From contig NC_091995.1 in NCBI RefSeq assembly GCF_044704955.1, forward strand, positions 99,386,001 through 99,450,000: DNA of 64,000 nucleotides, written 5' to 3'. The notes under the pieces are model-generated. The model did not search any database, was not told the origin of the DNA, and saw nothing but the letters and a program-made list of their open reading frames with translations. Below, one piece after another: positions 20,601 to 61,411 of this stretch (positions are counted from its first letter, which is position 1; each line of letters opens with the position of its first letter). A program made the translations under genes and the position numbers. The DNA is from Pristiophorus japonicus. Taxonomy: Eukaryota.

Positions 20601-23600
20601 CGAGTTTGCTCTCATGCGTTCCACAGCCCTGAACTGCTTTTGTCAGAGCCATTCGACAGAAAGGCTTTTATACTCCATCCCCTTTATTACAAAGGGGATG
20701 GTGTATAAAAGCAAGGAAGTCTTGCTACAGCTATATAAGGTATTGGTGAGGCCACACCTGGAATACTGCATGCAGTTTTGGTTTCCATATTTACGAAAGG
20801 ATATACTTGCTTTGGAGGCAGTTCAGAGAAGGTTCACTCGGTTGATTCTGAGGATGAGGGGGTTGACTTATGAGGAAAGGTTGGGCCTCTGCTCATTGGA
20901 GTTCAGAAGAATGAGAGGTGATCAGATAGAAACGTCTAAGATTATGAGGGGGCTTGACAAGGTGGATGCAGAGAGGATGTTTCCACTGATGGGGGAGACT
21001 AGAACTAGGGGGCATAATCTTTGAATAAGGGGCCGCCCATTTAAAACAGAGATGAGGAGAAATTTCTTCTCTGAGGGTTGTAAATCTGTGGAACTTGCTG
21101 CCTCACAGAGCTGTGGAAGCTGGGACTTGAATAAATTTAAGACAGAAATAGACATTTTCTTAAATGATAAGGGGATAAGGGGTTATGGGGAGCAGGCAGG
21201 GAAGTGGAGCTGAGTCCATGATCAGATCAGCCATGATCTTATTGAATAGCTTGAGGGGCTGTATGGCCTACTCCTGTTCTTATGAAAGCTGTGAGCTGCA
21301 CTCATCCCACTGGTTTCAGTACAGCTCCTCCTGTAAAACACCAAGTCTGTTCAGATCTGCGCCGAATTAAAAGGCAATGCGAAAAATAAGGACAGCACTC
21401 CCAACCTCTAGCACGAAGGTGAAACTCATACCGAATTTCCTTTGTGTAACTCCTGCACTTTCAAAGCAACATCTGGCAGCAATTGAAACAGGCAGTCTCA
21501 CTATGGGGGCGTCTCCTTTCACCAACAAAGTTCTGCATGACTCCTTTTTGGAATCCTCATCTGTATTTTTAGGTCATTTATTACAGAAGATGGCAGCAAA
21601 GGTGGTTAAGCAGCAGCTTCAAAGGGAGGTCAATACTGTCAGAGTAACATGAAAGTGCTGTCGCCCGATATAGATCCAAGAGATACATTGAGCACGTCCC
21701 TTCAGTCAGTGGTCTGCTTTGTAAAAGGCATTTTCTCCATTAATCATTTGTGTGAAACAAAGAGAAAGATAAAGGCAGTGAATTCAGACCATAGCACCAC
21801 ATTCCCTGGCGAGAGCGGGCTTGGAACCAGTGCACTGTGGGAACTGGAAAATTAAACAGCCAGTAAGACAATCAGCTGATCACCAACAATGGGCTATTTG
21901 CCACAAACACATTCAGATGCTTCCCCGCTCGGATGACGTGATAATCTCTGCTCCATGAGCAACACCCATCAGAGGTGCACTTACAGCTGCAAAATTGGGT
22001 TTAAAAAAACTCATTTGGAGAATGACAACAGGGATTGTACACAGATGAACAAGTTGTACACTTTGAGGGAGAGCATTTTTTTTTTTAATAAAGATAAAAG
22101 TTATTTTTCCCGCGGTGTCACATTTATATTGCCAGGTCAGGTGCAATATAGTTAATTGCAGATTAAAACTCCCTGTTCCCTGCCGCAATGTGTCTCAACC
22201 CTGAGAGAGAGATCCCACTGCACCAGTGAGGCACACCAGGTACCCTAGTCTCTGAGTGACAGATTGGAGGCAGTTTTGTGGTTTCGGTCCACACAGGCGA
22301 ACGGACACTGGGAGACCAAAGTCACCACAGATTTGCACTAGGCCAACCAGAGTGACCTTCCATTATCGGACGTTAAATACGAGAATGGCAATGCACCAGG
22401 TAAAGCATTACACCTATCCACTCCAGAATGAGGCAGTTAAGGAACATCACCCATTCTGGAACAGCTTTCCACAGAAATTAATACCTGGAGGAGGAATATT
22501 TTGTTTAACAAAAAGGTTATACACAGAAACATTTCTGTGACACACAATGGCTATTCAACTCCTCCCTCACCTTGACAGCATCGAAGAACTGGCAGAGTTG
22601 AGATCGTTTCTGTTCATATTCAGTCTCAAGCTTCCGTAGCTCCTTATAAAAATCAGTATTTTCCTTCTCGTATAGACGCAGGATCCGCTCAAACGTCTCC
22701 CGTAGCTTTTTCCGCTTGTCTTTCAGCACCTTCTCATTAAGCTGGGGCTGCTGCACGGGATTGAACTCTGTACAAAAAACCATGGAAAAAATCTCAAAAA
22801 CGCAGCGTGCAGAGCAGACGATGGTGACAGCACAGAGCACTCACAGGACGGGGGACAGACGCGGCGACGGACAGCGGGAGGGGCAACGGACACCGGGCGC
22901 GGCGCGGGATGGGACGGCGCCGGACGGTGTCAATACAATCAAAAACCTGCCACAGAATACTTAACATAAGGTGCCCAGACCCCAGTCTCTGTCCCTGGCC
23001 CAACAGTATTACATACCCGTGGCCTCCTTAGTATGAACCAAAGTCAAGCGGATCAGATGTTTACTAATCAGAATTTTGAAATCTACAGATTATTCCCATT
23101 ATAAGCAAACTGGAACAATTGAGAATCTATAGCCAACAAATAAATGAAAATAACTGTTCAGTGAATTCAGACTGAGCAGCATGACAGCTTAGCAGGTAGT
23201 GTGGTGATTGGAATATTGGGTTATCCACCAAGACATCCAACCTAAACACCCAATCGCCCTCTGAGCTTGAACATGACACCTTCAACTGGGAAGCAACGAT
23301 GTTTCAGCACATTTTAAATATAATGGCAACTTTTTTTTATTTAAGAGGTGTTACGCCAATATCGTGAACACTCTTTTAAAAAAAATCAGATAGCTTTATC
23401 CTACATTCTTCTAATTCCTGGTCTTTACCCATTTCATCCAGTTTCTCCATGTCTTTGATTATCTGTTTGGGGTCCTTCATCTTCAGCACAGCAGCCCGCA
23501 CCATCATACGCTGCTTCTTGTTCTGTGAGATACGGAGCACAATGTTACCCAGGAATCCATCGCCGATTCAAATTCACACCAAAAGCATCCAAGTCCAGGG

Positions 23601-26895: not shown

Positions 26896-27759
26896 GAAGT
26901 CATGCACAGATAAACTAGACTGCAATCTACCATTCATGTCTAATGTTCATAAGATAACTAAATTAGCTTGATTTTGGACCCTTTCACCTAACGCAATCCA
27001 AATGATACTAATCACAGACAACCCAACACTCTTTGAACTATAAGCTGGTAGATACTGAATGAACTGTAATCCTCTTATTTCCCAGTTGTCACAGATGAAG
27101 GAAGGTACAAAGATGTAGTTGCTAACATAATTTTATTTAAAACCATCTAAAATAACACAACTAATTACATGGCATGGTTAAGCATTGCGAATCATGACAA
27201 GTACTTGATTTTATATTATCAGTCAGCAGTGTGGATCATCAGAGGCACAACCAGAACTTGTATTACAGTTTCTCATCTTGTTCAGGGTTTGATTCATAAT
27301 TTCACAACTGGTACTACGTTCTTATCTTCCTGGTTATGAGCAAGTTAGCAGTTGTGTTCAAGATGTTATTGACAAGGTTCTAGCATTAGGTATTGCTGTG
27401 AAATATACAGATCAAACATCCATCTCTTCCTTTTAGGAGATTGTTAGCTGTAGCCAGTCTCTCGGCTCCGTGAATGAAGGACAGAATGTCAACACTAAAG
27501 GTCAACACACAAACAGTCTTGTTTAGCGAAATGATTAGCCTCATTACTGTGAACAAACCTTGCAAAGAATTAACTTGTTTTCTAACAAGGTTTTGGTTAT
27601 ATTACTGCCACTTGGTATTAACTTGTCAATTGCCAGCAGAGTAAGAATCATACAAAGAGGTTTAATGCTGAGGTTTTTTTTCATGTTACACCCAATTTCA
27701 AGTTAATCCTGTTCACTTGATGTAGGGACATTGATCTGCATTTCTGTGCAGTATCTCTC

Positions 27760-27866
27760 CTAGCCGTCAACATCGCCAAGCCGCCAGCACCACACAGACA
27801 CCACCACCAGGTGGAGCAGGAACACAACCCCCAAACGGAACCCCACAGCCGTGGGCCACACCAATC
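27760..27866 (-). CDS. TM/terminal exon of the activating receptor (not in the ORF track)
   Basis: Acceptor ctcttttctcgcattag; hydrophobic stretch starting ..GFRLGVVFLL..; stop TAG at 27762-27760. Confidence 0.72.
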
Positions 27867-30800
27867 CTAATGCGAGAAAAGAGGGCGTGATTAGCATTCA
27901 GGTCAAGGCAGCAAGATCCCGATAAAATGCTCGCGGTCTGAAATTATTTCACCTCGAATGAGATGTGTTAGGGAAATTGATGGGATTGAAGGCTGATAAA
28001 TCCCCAGGGCCTGATAGGCTGCATCTCAGAGTACTTAAGGAAGTGGTTTTAGAAATAGTGGATGCATTGGTGATCATTTTCTCTGGATTAGTTCCTATGG
28101 ACTGGAGGGCAGCTAATGTAACAGCACTTTTTAAAAAAGAAGGGAGAGAGAAAACGAGTAATTATAGACCGGTTAGCCTGACATCAGTAGTGGGGAAAAT
28201 GTTGGAATCTATTATTAAGGATGAAATAGCAGCGCATTTGGAAAGCAGTGACAGGATCGATCCAAGTCAGCATGGATTTATGAAAGGGAAATCATGCTTG
28301 AAAAATCTTCTGGAATTTTTTGAGGATGTTTCCAGTAGAGTGGACAAGGGAGAACCCATGGATATAGTGTATTTGGATTTTCAAAAGGCTTTTGACAAGG
28401 TCCCACACAAGAGAGTGGTGTGCAAAATTAAAGCACATGGTATTGGGAGTAATGTACTGACATGGATAGAGAACTGGTTGACAGACAGGAAGCAGAGAGT
28501 CGGGATAAATGGATCCTTTTCAGAATGGCAGGCAGTGACTAGTGGAGTGCTGCAGGGCTCAGTGCTGGGACCCCAGCTATTTACAACATACATTAATGAT
28601 TTGGATGAAGGAATTGAGTGTAATATCTCCAAGTTTGCAGGTGACACTAAGTTGGGTGGCAGTGTGAGCTGTGAGGAGGACGCTAAGAGGCTGCAGGGTG
28701 ACTTGGACAGGTCAAGTGAGTGGGCAAATGCATGGCAGATGCAGTATAATGTGGATAAATGTGAGGTTATCCACTTTGGGGGCAAAAACACGAAGGCAGA
28801 GTATTATCTGAATGGCGGCAGATTAGGAAAAGGGGAGGTGCAACGAGACCTGGGTGTCATGGTTCATCAGTCATTGAAGGTTGGCATGCAGGTACAGCAG
28901 GCGGTGAGGAAGGCAAATGGTCTGTTGGCATTCATATCTAGGGAATTTGAGTATAGGAACAGGGAGGTCTTACTGCAGTTGTACAGGGCCTTGGTGAGGC
29001 CTCACCTGGAATATTGTGTTCAGTTTTGGTCTCCTAATCTGAGGAAGGATGTTCTTGCTATTGAGGGAGTGCAGCGAAGGTTCACCAGACTGATTCCCAG
29101 GATGGCAGGACTGATATATGAGGAGAGACTGGATCGACTAGGCTTGTATTCACTGGAGTTTAGAAGGATGAGAGGGGATCTCATAGAAACATATAAAATT
29201 CTGACGGGACTGGACAGATTAGATGCAGGAAGAATGTTCCCGATGTTGGGGAAGTCCAGAACCAGGGCTCACAGTCTAAGGATAAGGGGTAAGCCATTTA
29301 GGACTGAGATGAAGAGAAACTTCTTCACTCAAGAGAGTTGTTAACCTGTGGATTTCCCTGCCGCAGAGAGTTGTTGAGGTCAGTTGGATGTATTCAAGAG
29401 GGAGTTAGATATGGCCATTATGGCTAAAGGGATCAAGGGGTATGGAGAGAAAGCAGGAAAGGGGTACGGAGGGAATGATCAGCCATGATCTTATTGAATG
29501 GTGGTGCAGACTCAAAGGGCCGAATGTCCTACTCCTGCACCTATTTTCTATGTTTCTATGTGCGTGGGTTGGTTCGAGATTCCTGTAATTTCAAACATAT
29601 GACAGCAAAACGAACGGACATGTTTCCGTTTCTCCAGCCACTGAGGAACACCCTGAACCCATTTACAAACAACAAGTTGTTTTTGTCGTGTAGTCATTGT
29701 TAGGTACATAGTGAGATCCCACAGACGGCCAGTAAGATGAGTGACAGTAAAGCTATATTTGGTGATGTTGGAGCATATCAGAGAGCTCCCTGCTCCTCTT
29801 TCAGGCCCATTTCGAGCACCGGAAGAGACTGTCCAGACCCTAGTTTAATGTTTGATCCAAGTGACAGCACTCCCTCAGTACCAGAGTGCAGGGTCACTCC
29901 AGGGGATAGACGCTTCGAACAAACAGACAAGATTGCTGCAGCTGAGCCGACCTAACAACAACAACAACTTGTATTTATATAGCGCCTTTAACGTGGTGAA
30001 ACGTCCCAAGATCCTTCACAGGAGTGTTATGCAATAAAACAATTTGACACCGAGCAGCATAAGGAGAAATTAGGGCAGGTGACCAAAAGCTTGGTCAAAG
30101 AGGTAGGTTTTAAGGAGGATCTTAAAGGAGGGCAGAGAGGCGGAGAGGTTTATGGAGGGAGTTCCAGAGCTTGGGGCCCAGGCAACAGAAGGCACGGCCA
30201 CCAATGGTGGAGCGATTATAATCAAGGATGCTCAGGAGGGCAGAATTAGAGGAGGGCAGAGATCTCGGGGGGTTTTGGGGCTGGAGGAGGTTACAGAGAT
30301 AGGGAAGTGGTGAGGCCGTAGAGGGATTTGAAAATAAGGATGAGAATTTTGAAATCGAGGCGTTGCTTAACCAGGAGCCAATGTAGGTCAGCGAGCACGG
30401 GGGGTGATGGGTGAGTGGGACTCGGTGCGAGTTAGGACACGGGGCAGCGAGCACAGTGGGTGATGGGTGAGCGGGACTTGGTGCGAGTTAGGACACGGGG
30501 CAGCGAGCACAGTGGGTGATGGGTGAGCGGGACTCGGTGCGAGTTAGGACATGGGGCAGCGAGCACAGGGGTGATGGGTGAGCGGGACTTGGTGCGAGTT
30601 AGGACACGGGGCAGCGAGCACAGGGGGGTGATGGGTGAGTGGGACTCGGTGCGAGTTAGGACACGGGGCAGCGAGCACAGGGGGTGATGGGTGAGCGGGA
30701 CTTGGTGCGAGTTAGGACACAGGGCAGTGAGCACAGGGTGTGATGGGTGAGTGGGACTCGGTGCGAGTTAGGACACGGGGCAGCGAGCACAGGGGTGATG

Positions 30801-36800: not shown

Positions 36801-39800
36801 AGCCCAGTTGATCCAGTCTTTCTTGATAGGTCAGTCCCGCCATTCTATGATAGGTCAGTCCCGCCATTCCGGGAATCAGTCTGGTGAACCTTCGCTGCAC
36901 TCCCTCAATAGCAAGAATGTCCTTCCTCAGGTTAGGAGACCAAAACTGTACACAATACTCCAGGTGTGGCCTCACCAATGCCCTGTACAACTGTAGCAAC
37001 ACCTCCCTGCCCCTGTACTCAAATCCCCTTGCTATGAAGGCCAACATGCCATTTGCTTTCTTAACCGCCTGCTGCACCTGCATGCCAACCTTCAATGACT
37101 GATGTACCATGACACCCAGGTCTCGTTGAACCTCCCCTTTTCCTAAGCTGTCACCATTCAGATAATAGTCTGTCTCTCTGTTTTTACCACCAAAGTGGAT
37201 AACCTCACATTTATCCACATTATACTTCATCTGCCATGCATTTGCCCACTCACCTAACCTATCCAAGTCACTCTGCAGCCTCATAGCATCCTCCTCGCAG
37301 CTCACACTGCCACCCAACTTAGTGTCATCCGCAAATTTGGAGATACTACATTTAATCCCCTCGTCTAAATCATTAATGTACAATGTAAACAGCTGGGGCC
37401 CCAGCACAGAACCTTGCGGTACCCCACTAGTCACTGCCTGCCATTCTGAAAAGTCCCCATATACTCCTACTCTTTGCTTCCTGTCTGACAACCAGTTCTC
37501 AATCCATGTCAGCACACTACCCCCAATCCCATGTGCTTTAACTTTGCACATTAATCTCTTGTGTGGGACCTTGTCTAAAGCCTTCTGAAAGTCCAAATAT
37601 ACCACATCAACTGGTTCTCCCTTGTCCACTCTACTGGAAACATCCTCAAAAAATTCTAGAAGATTTGTCAAGCATGATTTCCCTTTCACAAATCCATGCT
37701 GACTTGGACCTATCATGTCACCTCTTTCCAAATGCGCTGCTATGACATCCTTAATAATTGATTCCATCATTTTACCCACTACTGAGGTCAGGCTGACCAG
37801 TCTATAATTCCCTGTTTTCTCTCTCCCTCCTTTTTTAAAAAGTGGGGTTACATTGGCTACCCTCCACTCGATAGGAACTGATCCAGAGTCAATGGAATGT
37901 TGGAAAATGACTGTCAATGCGTCTGCTATTTCCAAGGCCACCTCCTTAAGTACTCTGGGATGCAGTCCATCAGGCCCTGGAGATTTATCGGCCTTCAATC
38001 CCATCAATTTCCCCAACACAATTTCCCGACTAATAAAGATTTCCCTTAGTTCCTCCTCCTTACTAACCCCTCTGACCCCTTTTATATCCGGAAGGTTGTT
38101 TGTGTCCTCCTTAGTGAATACTTCGGTTAGATGCGGGAAGAATATTCCCGATGTTGGGGAAGTCCAGAACCAGGGGACACAGTCTTAGGATAAGGGATAG
38201 GCCATTTAGGACTGAGATGAGGAGAAACTTCTTCACTCAGAGAGTTGTTGACCTGTGGAATTCTCTACCGCAGAGAGTTGTTGATGCCAATTCATTGGAT
38301 ATATTCAAGAGGGAGTTAGATATGGCCCTTACGGCTAAAGGGATCAAGGGGTATGGAGAGAAAGCAGGAAAGGGATAATGAGGGAATGATCAGCCATGAT
38401 CATATTGAATGGCGGTGCAGGCTCGAAGGGACAAATGGCCTACTCCTGCACCTATTTTCTATGTTTCTATGTTTCTATGAGAACATATACAGGATAAACT
38501 CAGCTTGACACCTTGGAAAGACTAAAGCAAAATACTGTGGATGCTGGAAATCTGAAATTAAAACAGGAAATGCTGAAAATACTCAGCAGATCAGACATAA
38601 TCTGTGGAGGGAAACAGTTAACATTTCAGGTCGAAGATTTCATCAGAACTGGAAAAAGTTGGATATGTAACAGATTTTAAGCAAGTACAGAGGCTGGGAA
38701 AGGGGGAGAGTAGGGAGGAAAGAACAAATGGGAAGGTGGGATAGGGTGGAGAGCAGAAGAGATTTCACTCAGAGAGTTGTTAACCTGTGGAATTCTCTAC
38801 CGCAGAGAGTTGTTGAGGCCAGTTCATTAGATATATAGAAAAGGGAGTTAGATATGGCCCTTACAGCCAAAGGGATCAAGGGGTATGGAGAGAAAGCAGG
38901 AAAGGGGTACTGAGGTTGAATGATCAGCCATGATCTTATTGAATGGTGGTGCAGGCTCGAAGGGTCGAATGGTCTACTCCTGCACCTATTTTCTATGTTT
39001 CTATGAATGACAAAAGGAATGATGGTGCGAGACAATAAGGGATGGTAATGGAGCAAGACACAAACGATGAGTCCAGAGGAGGTGTAAACGGCAACAGAAG
39101 AGTCATTAGCAACGGCTGCCATCTGTCTGAAATTGTTGAACTCGATGTTGAGTCCAGAAGGCTGTAAAGTGCTTGATCGAAAGATGAGGTGCTGTTCCTC
39201 GAGCTTAGAATCATCTTCTTCATAGGCGGTCCCTCGAAGCGAGGATGACTTGCTTCCAAACCAAAAAAGGATAAGTTCACAGGTGTTCCAATGAAGGACC
39301 TAAAATTCCAGGTCCTGAACTACATGTAGAAAGGTGGAAGATGCCTGTGGGTGGATTTTTTTAACGTGGGGTGACCGCTGCACACCAGCCACCACACGGG
39401 CTTGACAGAGCGAGGTCTTGGTCCAGTGGCCAACTGGAGACTTGCTCTGCTGCACGGACCTAGTGCGCACATATCGCAGTGTGGGCTGGTCCGTGCTGCC
39501 CCTGGGCCCCTGGACCCGAACTCATGCCTCTCCTGGGCCCCATCACATCCCTCTACATGCCACCCCTTTGCCCCGACCTCACCGCTCCTGCTGTACCTGC
39601 CCACGCTCTAATAAAATCATAGAATGGTTACAGAACGGAAGAAGGCCGTTCGGCCTGTCGAGCCCATACACGCTTCCATTCAGCTTCGTTGGAACAGTGG
39701 AGGAGGCTAAAGATAGAGAGGTCACTCACCTGTCACAGTTACCTGCACATGATCACTATACAGTGACACAGACTGATTGGACCAATAGCCACAGAAGTAA

Positions 39801-42800
39801 CTTCCCGAATCCGAGATGGTTACACGTTTGAGCTCGAAGAATGTGACAGAACTATTTTCTGCTGCCTGTGTGAGTCGCGGATTCTTGGTGTCTTTGTACA
39901 ACACAAAGTGTGTAGGTGGGTCCGGCCCGGGAGCTGTACATGTAAATCTAACAGTATCTCCTATCGCTGCACCACCTGATGAGGGAGTCACGGCTAGTGT
40001 GGGAACTGGAGCAGGGGCTGGAACCAAGAGATTGTGGAAAACAAAAGCTGGGATGAGTTTGAATCATTTCATATTGATTGTGAAATATCCAACAACGGTC
40101 GGTTAGAATGGGTTTGGAGATGTTCTTTCCAAAGATTAAATACCATGGGATATACAGGAATATACCATGGAATATAGAATCACAGAACCTTACAGCACAA
40201 AAGAAGACCATTCGGCTCATTGTGCCTGTGCCAGCTCTTTAAGAACATAAGGATTAGGAGCAGGAGTCGGCCATTCGGCCCCTCGATTCTGCTCCGCCAT
40301 TCAATAAGATCATGGCTGATCTATCTCAACTCCACTTTCCTGCATTATACCCATATCCCTTGATTCCCTTAATATCCAAAAAATCTATTGATCTCTGGCT
40401 TGAATATCTTCAATAACTGAGCCTCCACAGCCCTCTGGGGCAGAGAATTCCAAAGATTCACCATCCTCCTCATCTCAGTCCTTAAAGGCCAACCCCTTAT
40501 TCTGAGACTGTGACCCCTAGTTCTTTGAAAGATCTATCCAATTTATTCCTACACCCCAGCCTTTTCCCCATAACCCTGCATATCAGTCCTCTTTAAATAC
40601 AGGTCCAATTACCTTTGGAAAGTTCCCACAGAATCTGCTTGCACCACTCTCTTTCAGGTAGCACCCTCTGTGTGAAGAAATTTATCCTCCATTCCCCTCT
40701 AGTTCTTTTGCCAATCATTTTAAGTCTATGACCTCTGGTTACCGACCCATTTGCCAGAGGAAAGTTTCTCCTTACTTGCTCCTTCAAAACCCCTCATCAT
40801 TTTGAATACCCCTGTGGGGTCTCCCATTAAACTTCTCTGCTGTAAGGAGAACAATCCCAGCTTCTGCAATCTCTCCACATAACCGAAGTCCCTCATCCCC
40901 GGTGTCAACCTGTGAACCTCCTCTGCACCCTCTGCAAGGCCTTGACATTCTTTCCCAAGTCTGGTGTCCAGAATTGTCCAGCTAGGCCTAACCAGAGATT
41001 TGTAAAGGATTACCATGACTTCCTTCTTTTTGTATTTAATGGTCTTATTTACAAAGGAATATACCATGGAATGTACAGGAATATACCAGAATGAGAAGAG
41101 AGTGAGTAGACGAGACCTATATTCTCTAGAGTTTAGAAGAATGAGAGGTGATCTCATTGAAAGATACAAAATTCTTACAGGGCTTGACAGGGTCGATGCA
41201 GGGAGGATGTGTAAAGTCCTGTCCCCTCAGTACAGATTCACATGAGGCATGTAGTGAAGTCAAGGTCACTCTGGACCTGCACCTTTTATTTTCCAGCTCT
41301 GGAATGCTGCACTTGCCTGAGACCTGTCCTTATATACCTGTCTCTTGCAAGTGCACCCCTGGTGGTAAGGTATGCTGGTGATTACAGGTCTTATCTTATT
41401 ACAGTCATGTACAGCATGTTAGGATACAGTTATATATAATAATGTAAAATACATGACAGGATGTTTCCCCCCGGCTGGGGTGTCTAGATCCAGGGGTCAC
41501 AGTCTCAGGATAAGGGGTTGGCCATTTAGGACTGAGATGAGGAGGAATTTCTTCACTCAGAGGGTGGTGAATCTTTGGAATTCTCTGCCCCAGAGGGCTG
41601 TGGAGGCTCAGTCGTTGAGTATATTCAAGGCAGATATCGATAGATTTGTGGATATTAAGGAAATTAAGGGATATGGGGACAGTGCAGGAAAGTGGAGTTG
41701 AGGTCGAAGATCAGCCGTGATCTTATTGAATGGCGGAGCAGGCTCGAGGGGTCGAATGGGCGACTCCTGCTCTTAATTCTTATGTTAATGTACAGGAGTT
41801 ACAGGAGGGGGCAGAGTGAGTGGGAAGTCTCCAGCAGACCTCCTCCCGCAGTTACTGATTGATCAGGGAGACTCGGATCCAGTCTCGGGCGGAGGAGACT
41901 GTCCACACGGGAGAAGCAGGGTTCGAGACACAAACAAGGGGAGAGAAACATGGATCTCACTCACCTCTCACGATTACTCTCACATCATTACTGTAACCTA
42001 CCGATGCAAAGCGCTCGGTGTCATACACACAGAAGTAGCTCCCTCCATCCAAGTAGTTCATTACTTTGAACTGGAACACGCCCTCAAACACCTTTTCCAA
42101 TGTGTTTATCACATGCTGCTTTCCAACTTTATACAAATGGAATGTGAGTGCAGTTTGGGGCCCGGGAGCTGTACATGTAAATCTAACCATGTCTCCGGCC
42201 ATCACAAAGCCTGATGGAGGCTCCAGGGTCAGTGTCAGTTTTGACGATCCACCTGAAACAAACAGATTAGATCATTCAATTCTCGCTGCAGTGGATGGAA
42301 CCCGATTCACTAGTGGTGGGAACAGAACTGGTTTCAATGAATTCATTCCCAATCCTGGATTAAACTCTCTGACTGGACAGCGGTGGGATATCCCATCCCC
42401 TCCACCGCCCAGGCACTGTCTCTGCCCATCGGGCACTGGTTCAACCCACTGTATGCCGTCTCTGCCCATCAGATGCTGTCTCTGCCCATCAGGCACTATC
42501 TCTGCCCATCGGGCACTGATTCTGCACATCGGGCACTGGTTCCATCCATCGGACATTGTCTCTGACCATCGGACACTGTCTCTGCCCATCGGGCGCTGAT
42601 TCTGCCCATCGGGCACAGGTACCACCCATCGGACGCTGTCTCTGCCCATCGGATACTGTCTCTGCCCATCGGGCGCTATCTCTGCCCATCTGGTGCTATC
42701 TCTGCCCATCGGGCGCTGTCTCTGCCCATCAGACACCGTCTCTGCCCATTGGATACCATCTCTGCCCATCGGGCGCTGATTCCACCTTTCGGACGCTCCT

Positions 42801-45462
42801 CAGACTGTCAAGAATCCCCGGCATCACGGCTCAACCGTGCCCCGGGTCCATGGCTGTGAGTTTCACCCTTGGAGCCAGTCAGGAGACATAACTGTGAGCA
42901 CCAGCTCGGTGTGATTGTACAATCCGGCAATGGATTCAGAAAAACATTGAACAGACGGGGGGTCCTGATGGCACACAGGAACAGCCTGCCCCATTGGATC
43001 ACGAGGAAAGGAACAAGAGTTGATACACATTGGCCAAGTGTGGCACACGAGATTGTATAATGACACTGTGAAAGGAGAGGCTCAAAAAATGAGTGCTGTA
43101 ACCTGGTGCTTCTGGGGCTGGACTGGTAACCCAGAGATCAAATCCCACCCTTCAGTGGATCTGCTAATGGATGCTCACCAAGGTGCTGGATTATGGTAAA
43201 TACTTAACGACTTCACTAAAATCCTGCAGGGAAGTATATCTCCTACCATACCTAGTCTGGCCTGCATGTGACTCCAATCAAATATCCTCAGGGCGTGAGG
43301 TTACTCAATACTGGCTTGTCGGTGTTGCCCACAGCTCAAGAACCTATGAATGCAAATATATACTGTATTATATCTGGTACCTAGCACATTGGGACATAAT
43401 ATTCCAATCGTCTCATTCTACCCTAAAATGTCTATGTTCCCAATCATGAGTACTGTTCAGATTCCATGGTCTCCACTAACTAACCTAACATCTGTCATTG
43501 GGAAAATGTTGGAGTCCATTATTAAGGAAGCAGTAGCAGGACATTTAGAAAATTAAAATGCAGTCAGGCAGAGTCAGCATGGTTTTATGAAAGGGGAAAT
43601 CATGTTTGACAAATTTGCTAGAATTCTTTGAGGATAAACGAGCAGGGTGGATAAAGGAGAACCAGTAGATGTGGTATATTTGGACTTCCAGAAAGCATTC
43701 GATAAGGTGACACACAAAAGGTTACTGCACAAGATAAGAGCTCACAGGGTTGGGGGTAATATATTAGCATGGATAGAGGATTGGCTAACTAACAGAAAAC
43801 AGAGAGTCAGGATAAATGGATCATTTTCAGTTTGGCAAACAGTAACTAGTGGGGTGCCACAGGGATCAGTGCTAGGGCCTCAACTATTTACAATTTATAT
43901 TAATGACTCGGATGAAGGGACCGAGTGTAATGTAACCAAATTTGCTGATGATACAAAGATAGGTGAGAAATCAAATTATGAGGAGGCTGTAAAGAATCTA
44001 CAGAGGGATATAGATAGGCTCAGGGAGTGGGCAAAAAATTTGGCAGATGGAGTATAATGTGGGAAAATGTGAGGTTATCCACTTTGGTGGGAAAAATAAA
44101 AAAGCAAATTACTATTTAAATAGAGAGATTACAAAATGTTGTAGTACAGAGGGACCTGGGGTCCTTTTGCACGAAACACAAGAAGTTAGTCTGCAGGTAC
44201 AGCAAGTGATCAGGAAGGCAAATGGAATGTTGGCCTTTATTGAAAGGGGGATAGAGTATAAAAGCAGAGAAGTCATGCCACAATTGTGCGTTGGTAAGAC
44301 CACACCTGGAGTACTGCGTACAGTTTTGGTCTCCGTATTTAAGGAAGGATATACTTGAATTGGAGGCAGTTGAGAGAAGGTCCACGAGGTTAATTCCTGA
44401 GATGAGGGGCTTGTCATATGAAGAAAGGTTGAGCAGGTTGGGCTCCTTGAAGTTTAGGGGAATGAGAGGTGATCTTATTGAAACATATAAGATTCTGGGG
44501 GACTGGACAGGGTAGATGCAGAGAGGATGTTTCCCCTTATGGGGAATCTAGAACTAGGGGGCATAGTTTCAGGGCATTGGATTACTGGCGGTATAAACAA
44601 GCTCCAAACGAAACAGAAAGCGAGCCGGGACAGTTGTTATTAAAACTTCGGACTCCGGGAAAGGTATCTCAGCCATCAGTTCTTGCTGCTACTGACTCAT
44701 CCTATCGCTTCTGCTTTGTGGTTCCGGAACTGACCTGCGATTCCGGCCTGCAGGGAGCCGACCACATCAGCTGGAAGAGAAAATTATTGAACAATTTAAA
44801 TCAGAAAGCGTTCTGCCAAGACACAAACAATAGTTTATAAAGTACAGATGTTTTCACTGAGTTGTGATTAAGTTGCAGGATAATGCAAAATGCGACGTTT
44901 TTACTTGTGCCCAATTTTACATAAAACTATCATCTCACACAATTCAACGACCAGCCGTTTGGACTAGCAGTGTCACAAGAAGCCTCAAATACATTGACAT
45001 TAACTCCCCGCTTCTATTCTCAAACAGTATGATGTTATTCTGAGAGTATTCCCTCTCACTGAAAATCCAATCACCTTTTCATACTGGGCTCGACAGCTGT
45101 AGTTGCTAAACAATTGTTCTGTGCATGGCATTGACTGTTACACTTGTTGGGAGTAGGACTTTGCCCAAACATTGCTGCCTGTTGCTAGAATGAAACGTCC
45201 CTCAGAAATCAATGGGAATGTCGAGAGCGAGTGACCTCCCCATTTACTGACAGGTATATCTACCATCCAATCTGCTGATGTGAGAAGAAGCTCACTCCAT
45301 GGTCTGAGGGGGTTAACAGGTGCCCCTCAACACTCCGAGCCTGCCTTCCCCACACTCAGCTTCTTTACCATTCAGCAACACCAGGCCTTCAGCCATAACC
45401 CACTGACAGTTCTTAATGGCGATCCAATACTCACCAAACACGAACATAGCGAAAAACAGCAT
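27760..45462 (-). CDS. LRC-like activating Ig receptor: split leader, two C2-type Ig domains, TM with Arg and His, very short tail (248 aa)
   Basis: Exons 45462-45435 (MLFFAMFVF, donor GTGAGT), 44770-44735 (36-nt mini-exon ADVVGSLQAGIA), 42252-41965 (Ig1, 288 nt), 40017-39730 (Ig2, 288 nt) and 27866-27760 (GLVWPTAVGFRLGVVFLLHLVVVSVWCWRLGDVDG*). All introns are phase 1 and the total of 747 nt is in frame. AATAAA at 27137-27132. Confidence 0.8.
27960..29560 (+). mobile_element. 5'-truncated CR1 LINE (second subfamily, TTTCTATG tail)
   Basis: 459-aa ORF with KSPGPD, NYRPVSLTS, YLDFQKAFD and QGSVLGP motifs. Confidence 0.93.
29954..31075 (-). mobile_element. L2-clade LINE fragment with an internal ~59-bp unit expanded 7-8x (~30390-30835)
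   Basis: (ACA)n end and GGRAFCCLGPKLWNSL motif; repeated RVLTRTKSRSPITPVL segment. Confidence 0.78.
31105..32125 (-). mobile_element. RTE-clade LINE 3' portion (degenerate)
   Basis: YADGTCV, QRCLRKILQIPWEDR, GKRAPGGQRKRYKD and C-terminal CPTC..H..H; (GAT)n tail. Confidence 0.85.
32700..35264 (+). mobile_element. RTE copy (+; ~32700-32965 and ~34676-35264) split by an antiparallel RTE copy (-; ~32966-34680)
   Basis: The plus frame ..LLYGSEAWTLYR| resumes as |KSLEIYHQRCLCKILQIPWEDR. The insert carries the RT core (FFDLTKAFD, GVKQGCVIAP, LQYADD). Confidence 0.82.
35270..38478 (+). mobile_element. CR1 copy (+; 35270-36305 and 38125-38478) split by an antiparallel CR1 copy (-; ~36306-38124)
   Basis: The host reads ..GLDRL|DAGRIFP across the insert, with GGTTAGA on both sides. 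The insert has a 515-aa RT ORF (36472-38019). Confidence 0.9.
38520..39205 (-). mobile_element. Penelope-like element fragment interrupted by a CR1 3' fragment (+, ~38766-39005)
   Basis: Minus strand at ~39130-39205 encodes LEEQHLIFRSSTLQPSGLNIEFNNF, resembling a GIY-YIG endonuclease C-terminus; terminal sequence shared with 59290-59520. Confidence 0.6.
39206..39610 (-). mobile_element. RTE-like element 3' end (different family)
   Basis: cataggcggtccctcgaagcgaggatgacttgcttcc resembles the RTE 3' termini at 8750 and 31118. Confidence 0.45.
39730..40017 (-). CDS. Ig domain exon 2 of the activating receptor
   Basis: PTLAVTP..GDTVRFTC..FVLYKD..DSGSYFCGY..SDHVQVTVTG; phase 1-1; donor GTGAGT. Confidence 0.88.
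40243..41040 (-). mobile_element. Degenerate CR1 3' fragments (two subfamilies)
   Basis: taagaacataag tail with 3' UTR; LGLFSLQQR and TRGHRLK motifs. Confidence 0.7.
41090..41790 (+). mobile_element. CR1 3' fragment hosting a solo LTR
   Basis: LYSLEFRRMRGDLIE..DAGRM|FPPAGVSRSRGHSL..NLWNSLP across the LTR. Confidence 0.82.
41210..41458 (-). mobile_element. Solo LTR (249 bp) with a 5-bp target-site duplication
   Basis: TGTAAAG...ATGACA termini; GGATG at 41205-41209 and 41459-41463; minus-strand TATATAAG (~41336-41329) followed by AATAAA (~41290-41285). Confidence 0.8.
41965..42252 (-). CDS. Ig domain exon 1 of the activating receptor
   Basis: LTLTLEPP..GDMVRFTC..FHLYK..DGGSYFCVY..SNDVRVIVRG; phase 1-1; donor GTGAGT. 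Confidence 0.88.
42410..42785. repeat. 20-bp minisatellite (TCTGCCCATCGGGCACTGTC), about 18-19 copies
   Basis: Directly visible 20-bp periodicity. Confidence 0.92.
43475..44572 (+). mobile_element. Degenerate CR1 RT fragment
   Basis: YLDFQKAFD, GVPQGSVLGP, KFADDTK and RPHLEYC motifs, with frameshifts. Confidence 0.88.
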
Positions 45463-59600: not shown

Positions 59601-61411
59601 GCGGGTTTGGGAGAATCCTTTCCTTCCCACAATCAACTATCTGATTCAGAAACAGATCATGTTCATCTTGCATCAGAACTGAGTTCCAGACATAGCTCAG
59701 GGAGGTTGCCCTGATTCTTGTCCAGTAAATTGTGCTAAAACATATCGTGTGTGGACATGAGGTGTGGCCGAGATCAGGCTGTGATATCCCCTAATAGTTG
59801 AACAGCCCATTGACACATACATAAAGAATAGCCACTTGGGCGAGGCACCAGTTAACTAATAAGTGCATGGCTTATTCCTAAATATTTATCTCTCTAAGGA
59901 ACTGTACAGTCTGATATTCTTTAGTTTCAGGTTCTACGCTGTAAATATTGTAAGAAACAGTCTGTATTACATGGATCTTTTATTGAAAAGCCTGGGTAAG
60001 GGGATCAGGCCTACAGTGCAGGACATCTCAAAATTTAAAAAAGAGTAGGAGTAAAGAGAAGGCCAGTTGGGGTGGTGATTAGCTACAGTACGCGGATGAC
60101 GATTGCGTCTGCGCACATTCAGAGGCCGAACTTCAAGCCATCATCAGCATCTTCGCCGAGGCGTACGAGGTGGCCTTGGACAACGTGAACCATTTCCCAT
60201 ACCTCGGGAGCCTACTGCCAGCAAGGGCAGACATTGACGACGAGGTCCAGCACTGCCTTCAGTGTGCCAGCGCAGCCTTCGGTCGCCTGAAGAAGAGAGT
60301 GTTTGAAGACCAAAACCTCAAATCTGGCACTACAGGGCAGTAGTGATACCCGCCGCTCAGAGACGTGGACCATATACAGTAGACAACTCAAAGGGCTGGA
60401 GAAGTACCATCAATGCTCCCTCCACAAGATCCTGCAAATCCACTGGGAGGATAGATGAACCAACGTCAGTGTTCTCGATCAGGCCAACATCCCCAACATC
60501 GAAGCATTGACCACACTCGACCAGCTCCACATGCCCGACACGAAACTCCCAAAGCAAGCGCTCTACTTGGAAGTCTTACATGGCAAGCGAACCCCAGGTG
60601 GGCAGAGGAAATGTTTCAAGGACATCCTCAAAGCCTCCCTGATAAAGTGCAACATCTCCACCGGAACGTTGGAATCCCTGGCCAAAGAGCACCCTAAGTG
60701 GAGGAAGAGCATCCAGGAGGGCGCTGAGCACCTCGAGTCTCATTGCCAAGAGCATGCAGAAATCAAGCACAGGCAGCGGAAGGAGTGTGCGGCAAACCAG
60801 ACTCCCTGCCCACCTTTTCCTCCAGCCACTGTCTGTCCCACCTGTGACTGTAATTCCCGTAATGGACTGTTCAGTCACCTGAGAATTCACTTTTAGAGTG
60901 GAAGCAAGTCTCGATTTTGAGGGACTGCCTATGATGATGATGATTACCATGTTTAGGGTTTAAACATCTATAAACTGTTTGGGGAAGGGCAGACTGAGGG
61001 AGTGAATAGTTCCTGGGGAAGAATGTGTTCGAGTCCGATTCAGTGTTAGGAATCTTGTTTTGGACACACTGGGGATGCAGGGAGAGGACAGAATGTGTAG
61101 GATGGGGGTCTGTAGTTTGAGAACAAAAACAGTCTAATCCTAAAACGTACATTAACTTCTATGGCCAAGGGACACAGGACAGGGCTCTTGAGCAGAACTG
61201 GATTCAAAGTATGAGGGAGAAACATAGAAACATAGAAAATAGGTGCAGGAGTAGGAATTCCCCACTCTCAAATTGAGGCTGTTTATTTTTGCCTCCTGTC
61301 TAGCAGTGACTGCCGGGTACAGTACTCTGGCCATAACAGGCATCTGCAGTGGTGTCCTTCTTATCCTCATCCTCCTGGGTTTCAGTATGTGCTTCTGTTT
61401 ATCCAAGAAAG
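47692..61411 (+). CDS. LRC-like Ig receptor: split leader, one C2-type Ig domain, uncharged TM; cytoplasmic exons not identified (partial)
   Basis: Exons 47692-47716 (MILILLLV, donor GTGAGT), 49387-49416 (30-nt mini-exon VQITEHRSAA, donor GTTAGT), 58876-59154 (Ig) and 61304/61307-61411 (TM ..LAITGICSGVLLILILLGFSMCFCLSKK, donor GTGAGT). All introns are phase 1. Confidence 0.75.
48385..49255 (-). mobile_element. Non-LTR retrotransposon RT C-terminal fragment (family unassigned)
   Basis: LSTIYKAQVRSVMEHSPLAW..DTIQDKAA and SWNSLP..FKKAAHHHLL motifs. Confidence 0.7.
50425..54975. repeat. ~4.5-kb C-rich minisatellite, unit (C)nTCACTGACCCA, ~16-20 bp
   Basis: Continuous tandem array with variable C-run length. 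Confidence 0.97.
55150..56900. repeat. Interstitial telomere-like array (CCCTAA/CCCAAA/CCCTGA) with N-runs
   Basis: Perfect (CCCTAA)n stretch at ~55195-55236; N blocks at 55259-55410, 55640-55798, 55911-56305, 56348-56545 and 56736-56900. Confidence 0.9.
56980..58388 (+). mobile_element. Two CR1 fragments (~56980-57270 and ~57390-58388)
   Basis: RFADDTK, RPHLEYC and NLWNSLP motifs; TTCTTATG tail at ~58372-58388. Confidence 0.85.
58400..58815. repeat. Degenerate pentamer satellite (CCCAA/CCCTA/CCTAA)
   Basis: Visible low-complexity array with a repeated CCTACCCAACTTAACTCAACCCAA unit, ending ~60 bp before the Ig exon. Confidence 0.85.
58876..59154 (+). CDS. Ig domain exon of the plus-strand receptor (not in the ORF track)
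   Basis: EILPKPPITTSHAYCTEGDTIFLSCIPPSKSIKYLFYKDEKFLETIQGDANYGILKIEGMTAWNQGNYSCVNEAATNEWSNRSEPVTVYVRLR; LPKP and WS.RSEP hallmarks; tgcag acceptor, GTGAGA donor. Confidence 0.87.
59290..59520 (-). mobile_element. Penelope-like element fragment
   Basis: FEEQHFIFRLGTLQPSGLNIEFNNF*, similar to a GIY-YIG endonuclease C-terminus. Confidence 0.6.
60082..60943 (+). mobile_element. Degenerate RTE-clade LINE
   Basis: LQYADD, MPDTKLPKQALY and CPTC..H..H motifs; (GAT)n tail. Confidence 0.82.
61304..61411 (+). CDS. TM exon of the plus-strand receptor
   Basis: TAGCAG tandem acceptor, uncharged hydrophobic run, juxtamembrane Cys residues and KK, phase-1 GTGAGT donor. Confidence 0.75.

Follow-up and report, generated by a model that had tools for sequence, protein, structure and literature searches.

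The stretch of Pristiophorus japonicus DNA analysed here (the window, 64 kb in full, to which all positions refer) contains a short exon that encodes a hydrophobic helix with an arginine and a histidine and then ends in a stop codon. Which kind of receptor does this exon complete, and how could such a protein transmit a signal? The original prediction had taken it for an FcR-gamma-coupled activating receptor that combines two ways of placing a charge in the membrane, the Arg of mammalian receptors such as LILRA and the His ascribed to chicken CHIR-A.

Gene structure and splicing of the sawshark receptor

The exon is the last one of a five-exon gene on the minus strand (27866-27760), and it carries the transmembrane helix and the stop codon (Table 1). 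The joined frame of the five exons encodes 248 amino acids that are identical to the UniRef protein P0001, which is labelled Pristiophorus japonicus and bears the automatic name 'Fc receptor-like protein 1'; the P0001 record may come from the same assembly and hence gives no independent support for the gene model. All introns are of the GT-AG type, and the acceptor of exon 5 has a pyrimidine-rich tract, ends in TAG and is in phase 1. The second Ig domain contains two N-glycosylation sequons, at residues 172 and 198. After Arg242, the cytosolic tail comprises six residues and no Tyr, so that the peptide, the stop and the lack of a signalling tail that had been read from positions 27760..27866 were borne out. 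The product is a spliced type I membrane protein whose leader is split and whose two Ig domains join the helix without a stalk; its tail is too short for signalling.

Table 1. Features of the sawshark receptor gene, with positions in the window
Feature	Position	Strand	Basis and remarks
Exon 1, first half of the split signal peptide, 28 nt	45435..45462	minus	ATG at 45462; GT donor, phase 1; joined CDS identical to P0001
Exon 2, leader mini-exon, 36 nt	44735..44770	minus	AG/GT borders; joined CDS identical to P0001
Exon 3, Ig domain 1, Cys48-Cys96, 288 nt	41965..42252	minus	Pfam Ig_2, E 1.3e-9
Exon 4, Ig domain 2, Cys144-Cys193, 288 nt	39730..40017	minus	Pfam Ig_2, E 3.9e-11; 3' end present in the spliced X1 contig
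Coding part of exon 5: helix ~217-241 without a stalk, tail, stop	27760..27866	minus	Joined CDS, hydropathy, AlphaFold; covered by the spliced X1 contig
Arg224 codon	27835..27837	minus	R in 3, K in 1 and Q in 1 of 5 species
His232 codon	27811..27813	minus	Invariant in 5/5 species; Arg position + 8 residues
Stop codon	27762-27760	minus	Joined CDS
3' UTR, putative end at AATAAA 27137-27132	27132..27759	minus	Signal; X1 contigs over 27156-27575 and 27606-27868

The junction between the second Ig exon (39730) and position 27866 had been part of the prediction as well, and it is confirmed by a spliced contig. One contig of run X1, 579 nt in length, aligns to 27606-27868; the part that extends beyond this alignment agrees with 39732-39761, where the Ig2 exon has its 3' end, at 29 of 30 positions, with 0 such matches expected by chance. 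This contig spans Ig2 and exon 5, and thus an intron of 11,863 nt has been removed by splicing. A second X1 contig covers 27156-27575, near the AATAAA at 27137. The library kind of run X1 is not on record, and its contigs were aligned to positions 26900-27950 only, a region picked as free of repeats; the spliced contig implies that X1 derives from RNA, and it gives neither tissue nor level. The support by X1 concerns the Ig2-exon 5 junction; the leader and Ig1-Ig2 junctions are those of the gene model alone. We also scanned the 414 YAG sites between 26000 and 39720 for acceptors that open a frame in which the hydropathy over 19 residues exceeds 1.5. Seven of them do so, and among these candidates exon 5 has both the highest hydropathy (2.25) and the acceptor with the richest pyrimidine tract (14/17). 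Since the spliced contig joins Ig2 to exon 5, the choice of the last exon is settled. The six other hydrophobic candidates are all weaker, and most of them lie within LINE- or SINE-like sequence.

Arginine and histidine in the transmembrane helix

Both polar residues lie within the predicted membrane helix, as had been assumed: the best hydrophobic window of 19 residues covers residues 221-239, with His232 at its position 12, and the AlphaFold helix extends over residues 217-244. Eight positions separate Arg224 from His232, a distance of about 12 angstroms at an angle of about 80 degrees. Relatives of the receptor were identified with HMMER among 1.84 billion representative sequences and with a profile, and as far as the proteins are named, the close relatives are all from cartilaginous fish; word-indexed protein searches with single sequences as queries returned nothing beyond P0001 itself. 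A helix is present in the relatives from the basking shark Cetorhinus maximus (P0022), the manta Mobula birostris (P0041), the stingray Hemitrygon akajei (P0157) and the chimaera Callorhinchus milii (P0037, P0158 and P0156). Three further Callorhinchus models (P0078, P0159 and P0160) and the partial model from Chiloscyllium (P0091) contain no helix. All these relatives are automatic gene models. They also differ in their ectodomains: the basking shark protein has an Ig1-type domain only and the two ray proteins have an Ig2-type domain only, whereas both are present in sawshark and chimaera. This loss of Ig domains between the lineages may reflect real shuffling or errors of the gene models.

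The helix had been expected to keep both residues in other chondrichthyans, and this was correct for one of them. His232 is kept in all five helix-bearing species, always eight residues past the Arg position. The latter is occupied by Arg in sawshark, basking shark and manta, but by Lys in Callorhinchus and by Gln in Hemitrygon, the Gln coming from one cluster and one contig. The tails of the relatives that share this His-bearing helix have 18-26 residues and contain no YxxL/I. Seven of the 28 columns of the helix region are invariant among the five species (W217, A220, L225, H232, V234, V235 and W239), and five of the seven are located within 60 degrees of His232 on the helical wheel. Trp217, Leu225, His232, Val235 and Trp239 form the conserved face of the helix, and Arg224 stands about 80 degrees round from it and two turns outward. 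A membrane helix is present in 98 of 150 matches. An N-proximal Arg or Lys occurs in 25 of these 98, whereas a mid-helix His was found in four family members and in only 1 of 94 others. These counts indicate that the Arg is ordinary for this class of receptors and that it is the conserved His that sets the helix apart. The architecture is a familiar one, which makes the receptor a matter of specialist interest, and what appears to be new is a His-centred helix that is conserved across Holocephali and Elasmobranchii. Our literature search, which covered few of the subscription journals that carry much of the work on fish immunology, returned no description of this family or of a His-centred adaptor interface.

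The sole mid-helix His among the 94 others belongs to P0024, an FcRL5-like protein of the sturgeon Acipenser ruthenus. In this protein (residues ~965-992), Arg and His are seven residues apart, and the helix has a similar lead-in (Trp...Ala-Val/Ile-Gly); it may represent the same subtype of helix, here on an ectodomain of the FcRL type.

The Arg had been placed in the context of the LILRA, OSCAR, GPVI, FCAR and NKp46 helices. The defining NxxR context belongs to these helices, and an NxxR-type helix is defined by NxxR together with an N-terminal DYT and an acidic residue at its C-terminal end (PMC6557307, excerpts). With respect to the register, the likeness holds: Arg224 stands 18 residues ahead of the cytosolic charged flank, as compared to 17-20 residues in the eight NxxR helices among the matches. 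With respect to the motif it does not, as the Asn three residues before the Arg is replaced by Val or Met in 5/5 species, and the sawshark helix, which ends in WCWR, has neither the DYT consensus nor the acidic residue. NxxR helices themselves were found in gar and grouper proteins and in none of the matches named as chondrichthyan. P0059, an FcRL5-like protein of Mustelus asterias, lacks the Asn but has a transmembrane Arg in N-proximal position and, at the C-terminal end, a Glu; it is nearer to the NxxR pattern than the sawshark helix. A search with the transmembrane peptide against solved structures gave no match at E 10.

The register raises the question whether the Arg alone drives a classical coupling to FcR-gamma, as in LILRA and FcalphaRI. 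The His would then be incidental or tune the folding, and the orthologues with Lys or Gln would be weakened or non-signalling. The Arg is kept in three of the five species, and Arg helices that lack the Asn are common among the relatives (17 of the 25 helices with a basic residue have no NxxR); moreover, activating KIRs of macaques are reported to pair an Arg with FcR-gamma (PMC8102735). Even so, we regard this explanation as unlikely: it is the His that is invariant and the Arg that varies, and the conserved columns gather on the face of the His rather than on that of the Arg. A site driven by the Arg alone is hard to square with the Lys and Gln orthologues. For the human FcalphaRI-FcR-gamma pair, an exchange of Arg to Lys leaves about 15% of assembly, a loss of about 85% (PMC1440944, excerpts). 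The conserved His and the variable Arg suggest an activating receptor that docks on its partner slightly differently from the known mammalian ones.

Relationship to LRC, FcRL and CHIR receptors

The best Foldseek matches of the receptor are LILRB4, NKp46, GPVI, FcalphaRI, OSCAR and KIR, with E-values of ~1e-12 to 1e-10. Among the matches listed, ranks 1-24 consist of LRC receptors and of 'protein receptor' entries without a name, and Fc receptors come next with slightly weaker E-values. The TM-scores are low (~0.3-0.35), probably as a result of a differing angle between the modelled domains. The ESM Atlas returned generic Ig-receptor clusters (TARM1, LILRA, MILR1 and others; 0.95) and no family assignment, and FCRL5 is the solved structure with the best sequence match (E 9.6e-17). 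We calculated a quick tree of 137 domains, without the Ig domain of the plus-strand gene described below, and a careful tree of 43 hand-picked domains (42 of the 137 plus this Ig domain). In the quick tree, the 13 domains of the family stand together at SH-aLRT 88; in the careful tree, its six domains do not form one clade (44% of bootstraps). The amniote LRC and the FcRL domains, groups whose labels derive from automatic names, each form one clade in the careful tree (95/96 and 95/93, respectively), and the shark family is inside neither of them. A grouping of the family with the LRC is not rejected (p-AU 0.50), and in the tree the family is sister to FcRL at 43/91.

Exon 2 of the LILR and KIR genes has 36 nt. 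The sawshark receptor has a split leader in common with the LRC, with 28 + 36 nt over two exons, and a split leader is typical of this complex (PMC3601082). With the NxxR receptors of the LRC (LILRA, FCAR, GPVI, OSCAR, NKp46, TARM1 and Xenopus ILR) it shares two C2-type Ig domains, the two-exon leader, the single exon for helix and short tail and the N-proximal register of the Arg. It differs from them by the missing Asn at -3, DYT and C-terminal acidic residue, by the variable Arg and the added invariant His in the middle of the helix, and by Ig domains that fall outside the amniote LRC clade. The resemblance to FcRL (FCRL1-6, Xenopus XFL and the FcRL5-like/LITR proteins of bony fish) lies in the match to FCRL5, in the FcRL-type automatic name and in the sturgeon helix with Arg and His; the basic residue of a catfish LITR is dispensable (PMC4810170, excerpts). 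In contrast, the leader exons of 28/36 nt do not follow the FcRL rule of 30/21 nt (PMC2413239, excerpts), and the Ig domains are outside the FcRL clade, which they join at 43/91 only.

Chicken CHIR and turkey TILR likewise have C2 domains (one or two), a split leader and paired families, and their activating forms have a single exon for helix and tail (PMC3601082). The transmembrane His that had been ascribed to CHIR-A was not confirmed: according to a survey from 2023, every CHIR-A subgroup has Arg, and CHIR3AB is the one subgroup with 'Arg or His' (PMC10764270, excerpts). No report of Arg and His together in one helix was met in the literature search. By analogy, the sawshark receptor would work like an activating LRC receptor with a helix that is not of the NxxR type, and it would be expected to couple to an adaptor.

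Probable adaptor coupling, putative paired receptors and neighbouring genes

The relatives of the receptor in the chimaera provide a context for its function. Callorhinchus P0158/P0037 have a helix with Lys and His and an 18-residue tail without Tyr, and in P0156 the helix is uncharged and the tail is long, with a single YxxI. The Ig domains of these proteins are nearly identical (branches of 0.01-0.08 in the 137-domain quick tree), and their BLAST identity is 80% over 197 columns, extending into the unlike helices. Judged by these gene models, twin ectodomains with different helices represent the pattern of paired receptors. The ITIM consensus requires an aliphatic residue at -2 (PMC3601082), which the YxxI of P0156 does not have, and the tail is that of an automatic model; the inhibitory role of P0156 is therefore only putative. 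The sawshark receptor has the features of an activating member, a basic transmembrane residue (Arg224) and a six-residue tail without a Tyr motif, and protein searches found no uncharged-helix twin of its ectodomain in sawshark.

The exon use, the short tail without motifs, the register of the Arg, the conservation of the helix and the paired context in the chimaera support an activating receptor, and taking all adaptor readings together we consider coupling to an adaptor of some kind very likely. To this extent the original prediction is likely to be correct. Its choice of FcR-gamma fared less well, as FcR-gamma was reported absent from sharks in a screen of 2014 (PMC4016189, excerpts), and its presence in these fish is disputed. 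The gene cd247 is expressed in the bamboo shark (PMC11372145, excerpts), and one supplement of the elephant shark genome paper (PMC3964593) contains none of six adaptor and receptor gene names. Surface expression independent of an adaptor, which had been named as an observation that would speak against the prediction, does not have this power since FcR-gamma is often not needed for NxxR receptors to arrive at the surface (PMC6557307, excerpts).

We propose that the sawshark receptor belongs, as its activating member, to a family of paired C2-type Ig receptors in chondrichthyans and that it uses a zeta-family ITAM adaptor through an interface that centres on the His and is assisted by the Arg, a proposal that in our view has an even chance of being right. 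The receptor, having no signalling tail of its own, would borrow the ITAM from the adaptor. The conserved His face would pack on a dimeric zeta-family ITAM adaptor, FcR-gamma if sharks have it and otherwise CD3-zeta/CD247, with His232 as the constant polar contact, and the outer Arg or Lys, where present, would pair with acidic residues of the adaptor and be dispensable in some lineages. Binding of a ligand by the Ig domains would then result in a Syk/ZAP70-type activation of a leukocyte. We favour this proposal for the following reasons: (i) The orthologues with Lys and Gln are a misfit for a site that depends on Arg. (ii) The His does not behave like a plain second charge. In human systems, the partners of FcR-gamma are marked by an Arg close to where the helix begins and those of DAP12 by a central Lys, and an exchange of Lys to His abolishes KIR-DAP12 assembly (PMC1440944, excerpts); the idea that both charge strategies are combined in this helix was not supported. 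(iii) In the catfish LITR 2.6b, replacement of the transmembrane Lys by Ala keeps the binding of FcR-gamma-like and CD3-zeta-like partners (PMC4810170, excerpts), and this dispensable Lys is a precedent in fish for looser rules with a non-essential basic residue.

The His could also stand in for the mid-helix Lys of DAP12/DAP10 partners, and the receptor would then signal through a shark DAP12 or DAP10. In DAP12 partners, the basic residue is nearer to the centre of the helix, at positions 7-12, a range that includes position 12 of His232, but it is exactly the exchange of Lys to His that human KIR-DAP12 assembly does not tolerate (PMC1440944, excerpts). In addition, a literature search found no paper showing DAP12 in sharks, and we hold a role of these adaptors to be very unlikely.

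The TCR alpha chain uses two basic residues to recruit two adaptor dimers, and to our knowledge two adaptor dimers on one helix are known only for the TCR. It is tempting to speculate that Arg224 and His232 might similarly serve two different adaptor dimers, each at its own depth in the helix: their distance seems too large for one focused three-helix site (as deduced from PMC1440944, excerpts), and the sturgeon P0024 has a similar helix. Such an arrangement is hard to reconcile with the loss of the Arg in one ray, and the literature search found no Ig receptor of this kind other than the TCR, which leaves it highly doubtful. It is also quite unlikely that chondrichthyans keep a His-centred third transmembrane adaptor code, possibly with recruitment of two adaptor dimers (Arg outside, His inside), that would be ancestral in jawed vertebrates. 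The similar helix with Arg and His in the FcRL5-like protein of the sturgeon would date such a code to before the split of LRC and FcRL. In chondrichthyans, it would be about 400 million years old.

A buried polar residue and a GxxxG-type motif are able to drive the pairing of helices, and a His in the membrane is mostly uncharged. The sawshark helix has such a motif (G222-G226) in addition to its polar His, and the motif is present in Cetorhinus, has the form G/S in Callorhinchus and is lost in both rays. The His face might thus bind no ITAM adaptor at all but serve homodimer formation or contact a co-receptor or a trafficking partner, and the protein would be a decoy, adhesion or accessory receptor. 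This would agree with the possible lack of FcR-gamma in sharks (PMC4016189, excerpts). However, the two rays keep the His without the GxxxG motif, a basic residue occupies the FcR-gamma register in four of the five species, and the paired ectodomain of the chimaera points to activating/inhibitory pairing, so that we regard a function apart from adaptors as rather improbable. A homodimer prediction for residues 120-248 scored 0.03 (mark 0.32) and was not counted as evidence.

The helices with Arg and His, Lys and His, and Gln and His form a small natural test panel that can reveal which adaptor sharks use and whether the His carries assembly. In the human system, a His cannot carry DAP12 assembly (PMC1440944, excerpts). 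In the screen of 2014, bony fish came out as the starting point of the FcR-gamma chain and of the FcRL and LRC-like genes (PMC4016189, excerpts). A receptor that is expressed, is LRC-like in fold and gene structure, extends from chimaera to rays and has a paired form in the chimaera argues that activating/inhibitory pairs of Ig receptors already worked in cartilaginous fish.

A second Ig-receptor gene is located head to head with the sawshark receptor gene on the plus strand. It has an Ig exon (58876-59154) for one C2-type Ig domain and an exon for an uncharged helix (61304-61411), the open phase-1 donor of which lets tail exons be expected beyond 61411. By its ESM Atlas features it is IGSF1/FcRL-like, in the 43-domain tree it is not a close relative of the minus-strand receptor, and it is a candidate for an inhibitory neighbour. 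The region between the two genes (~50000-57000) is very strongly GC-skewed and contains long simple repeats as well as runs of N; parts of the plus-strand gene, such as its leader or additional exons, may be hidden in these gaps. At the start of the window, two Glu-rich open frames on the minus strand (3-323 and 678-938), for which no Pfam match was found, resemble coding exons of a further gene that runs off the window. WBP11 (25935-11629, minus strand) lies directly downstream of the receptor gene on the same strand, with the Pfam domain Wbp11 at 23430-23522 and other exons seen. It is the only named neighbour within the 64 kb and is not among the LRC synteny markers of 19q13.4, which include TTYH1, LENG8, RPS9 and CNOT3 (PMC6557307, excerpts). 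WBP11 is usable as a synteny anchor for the locus.
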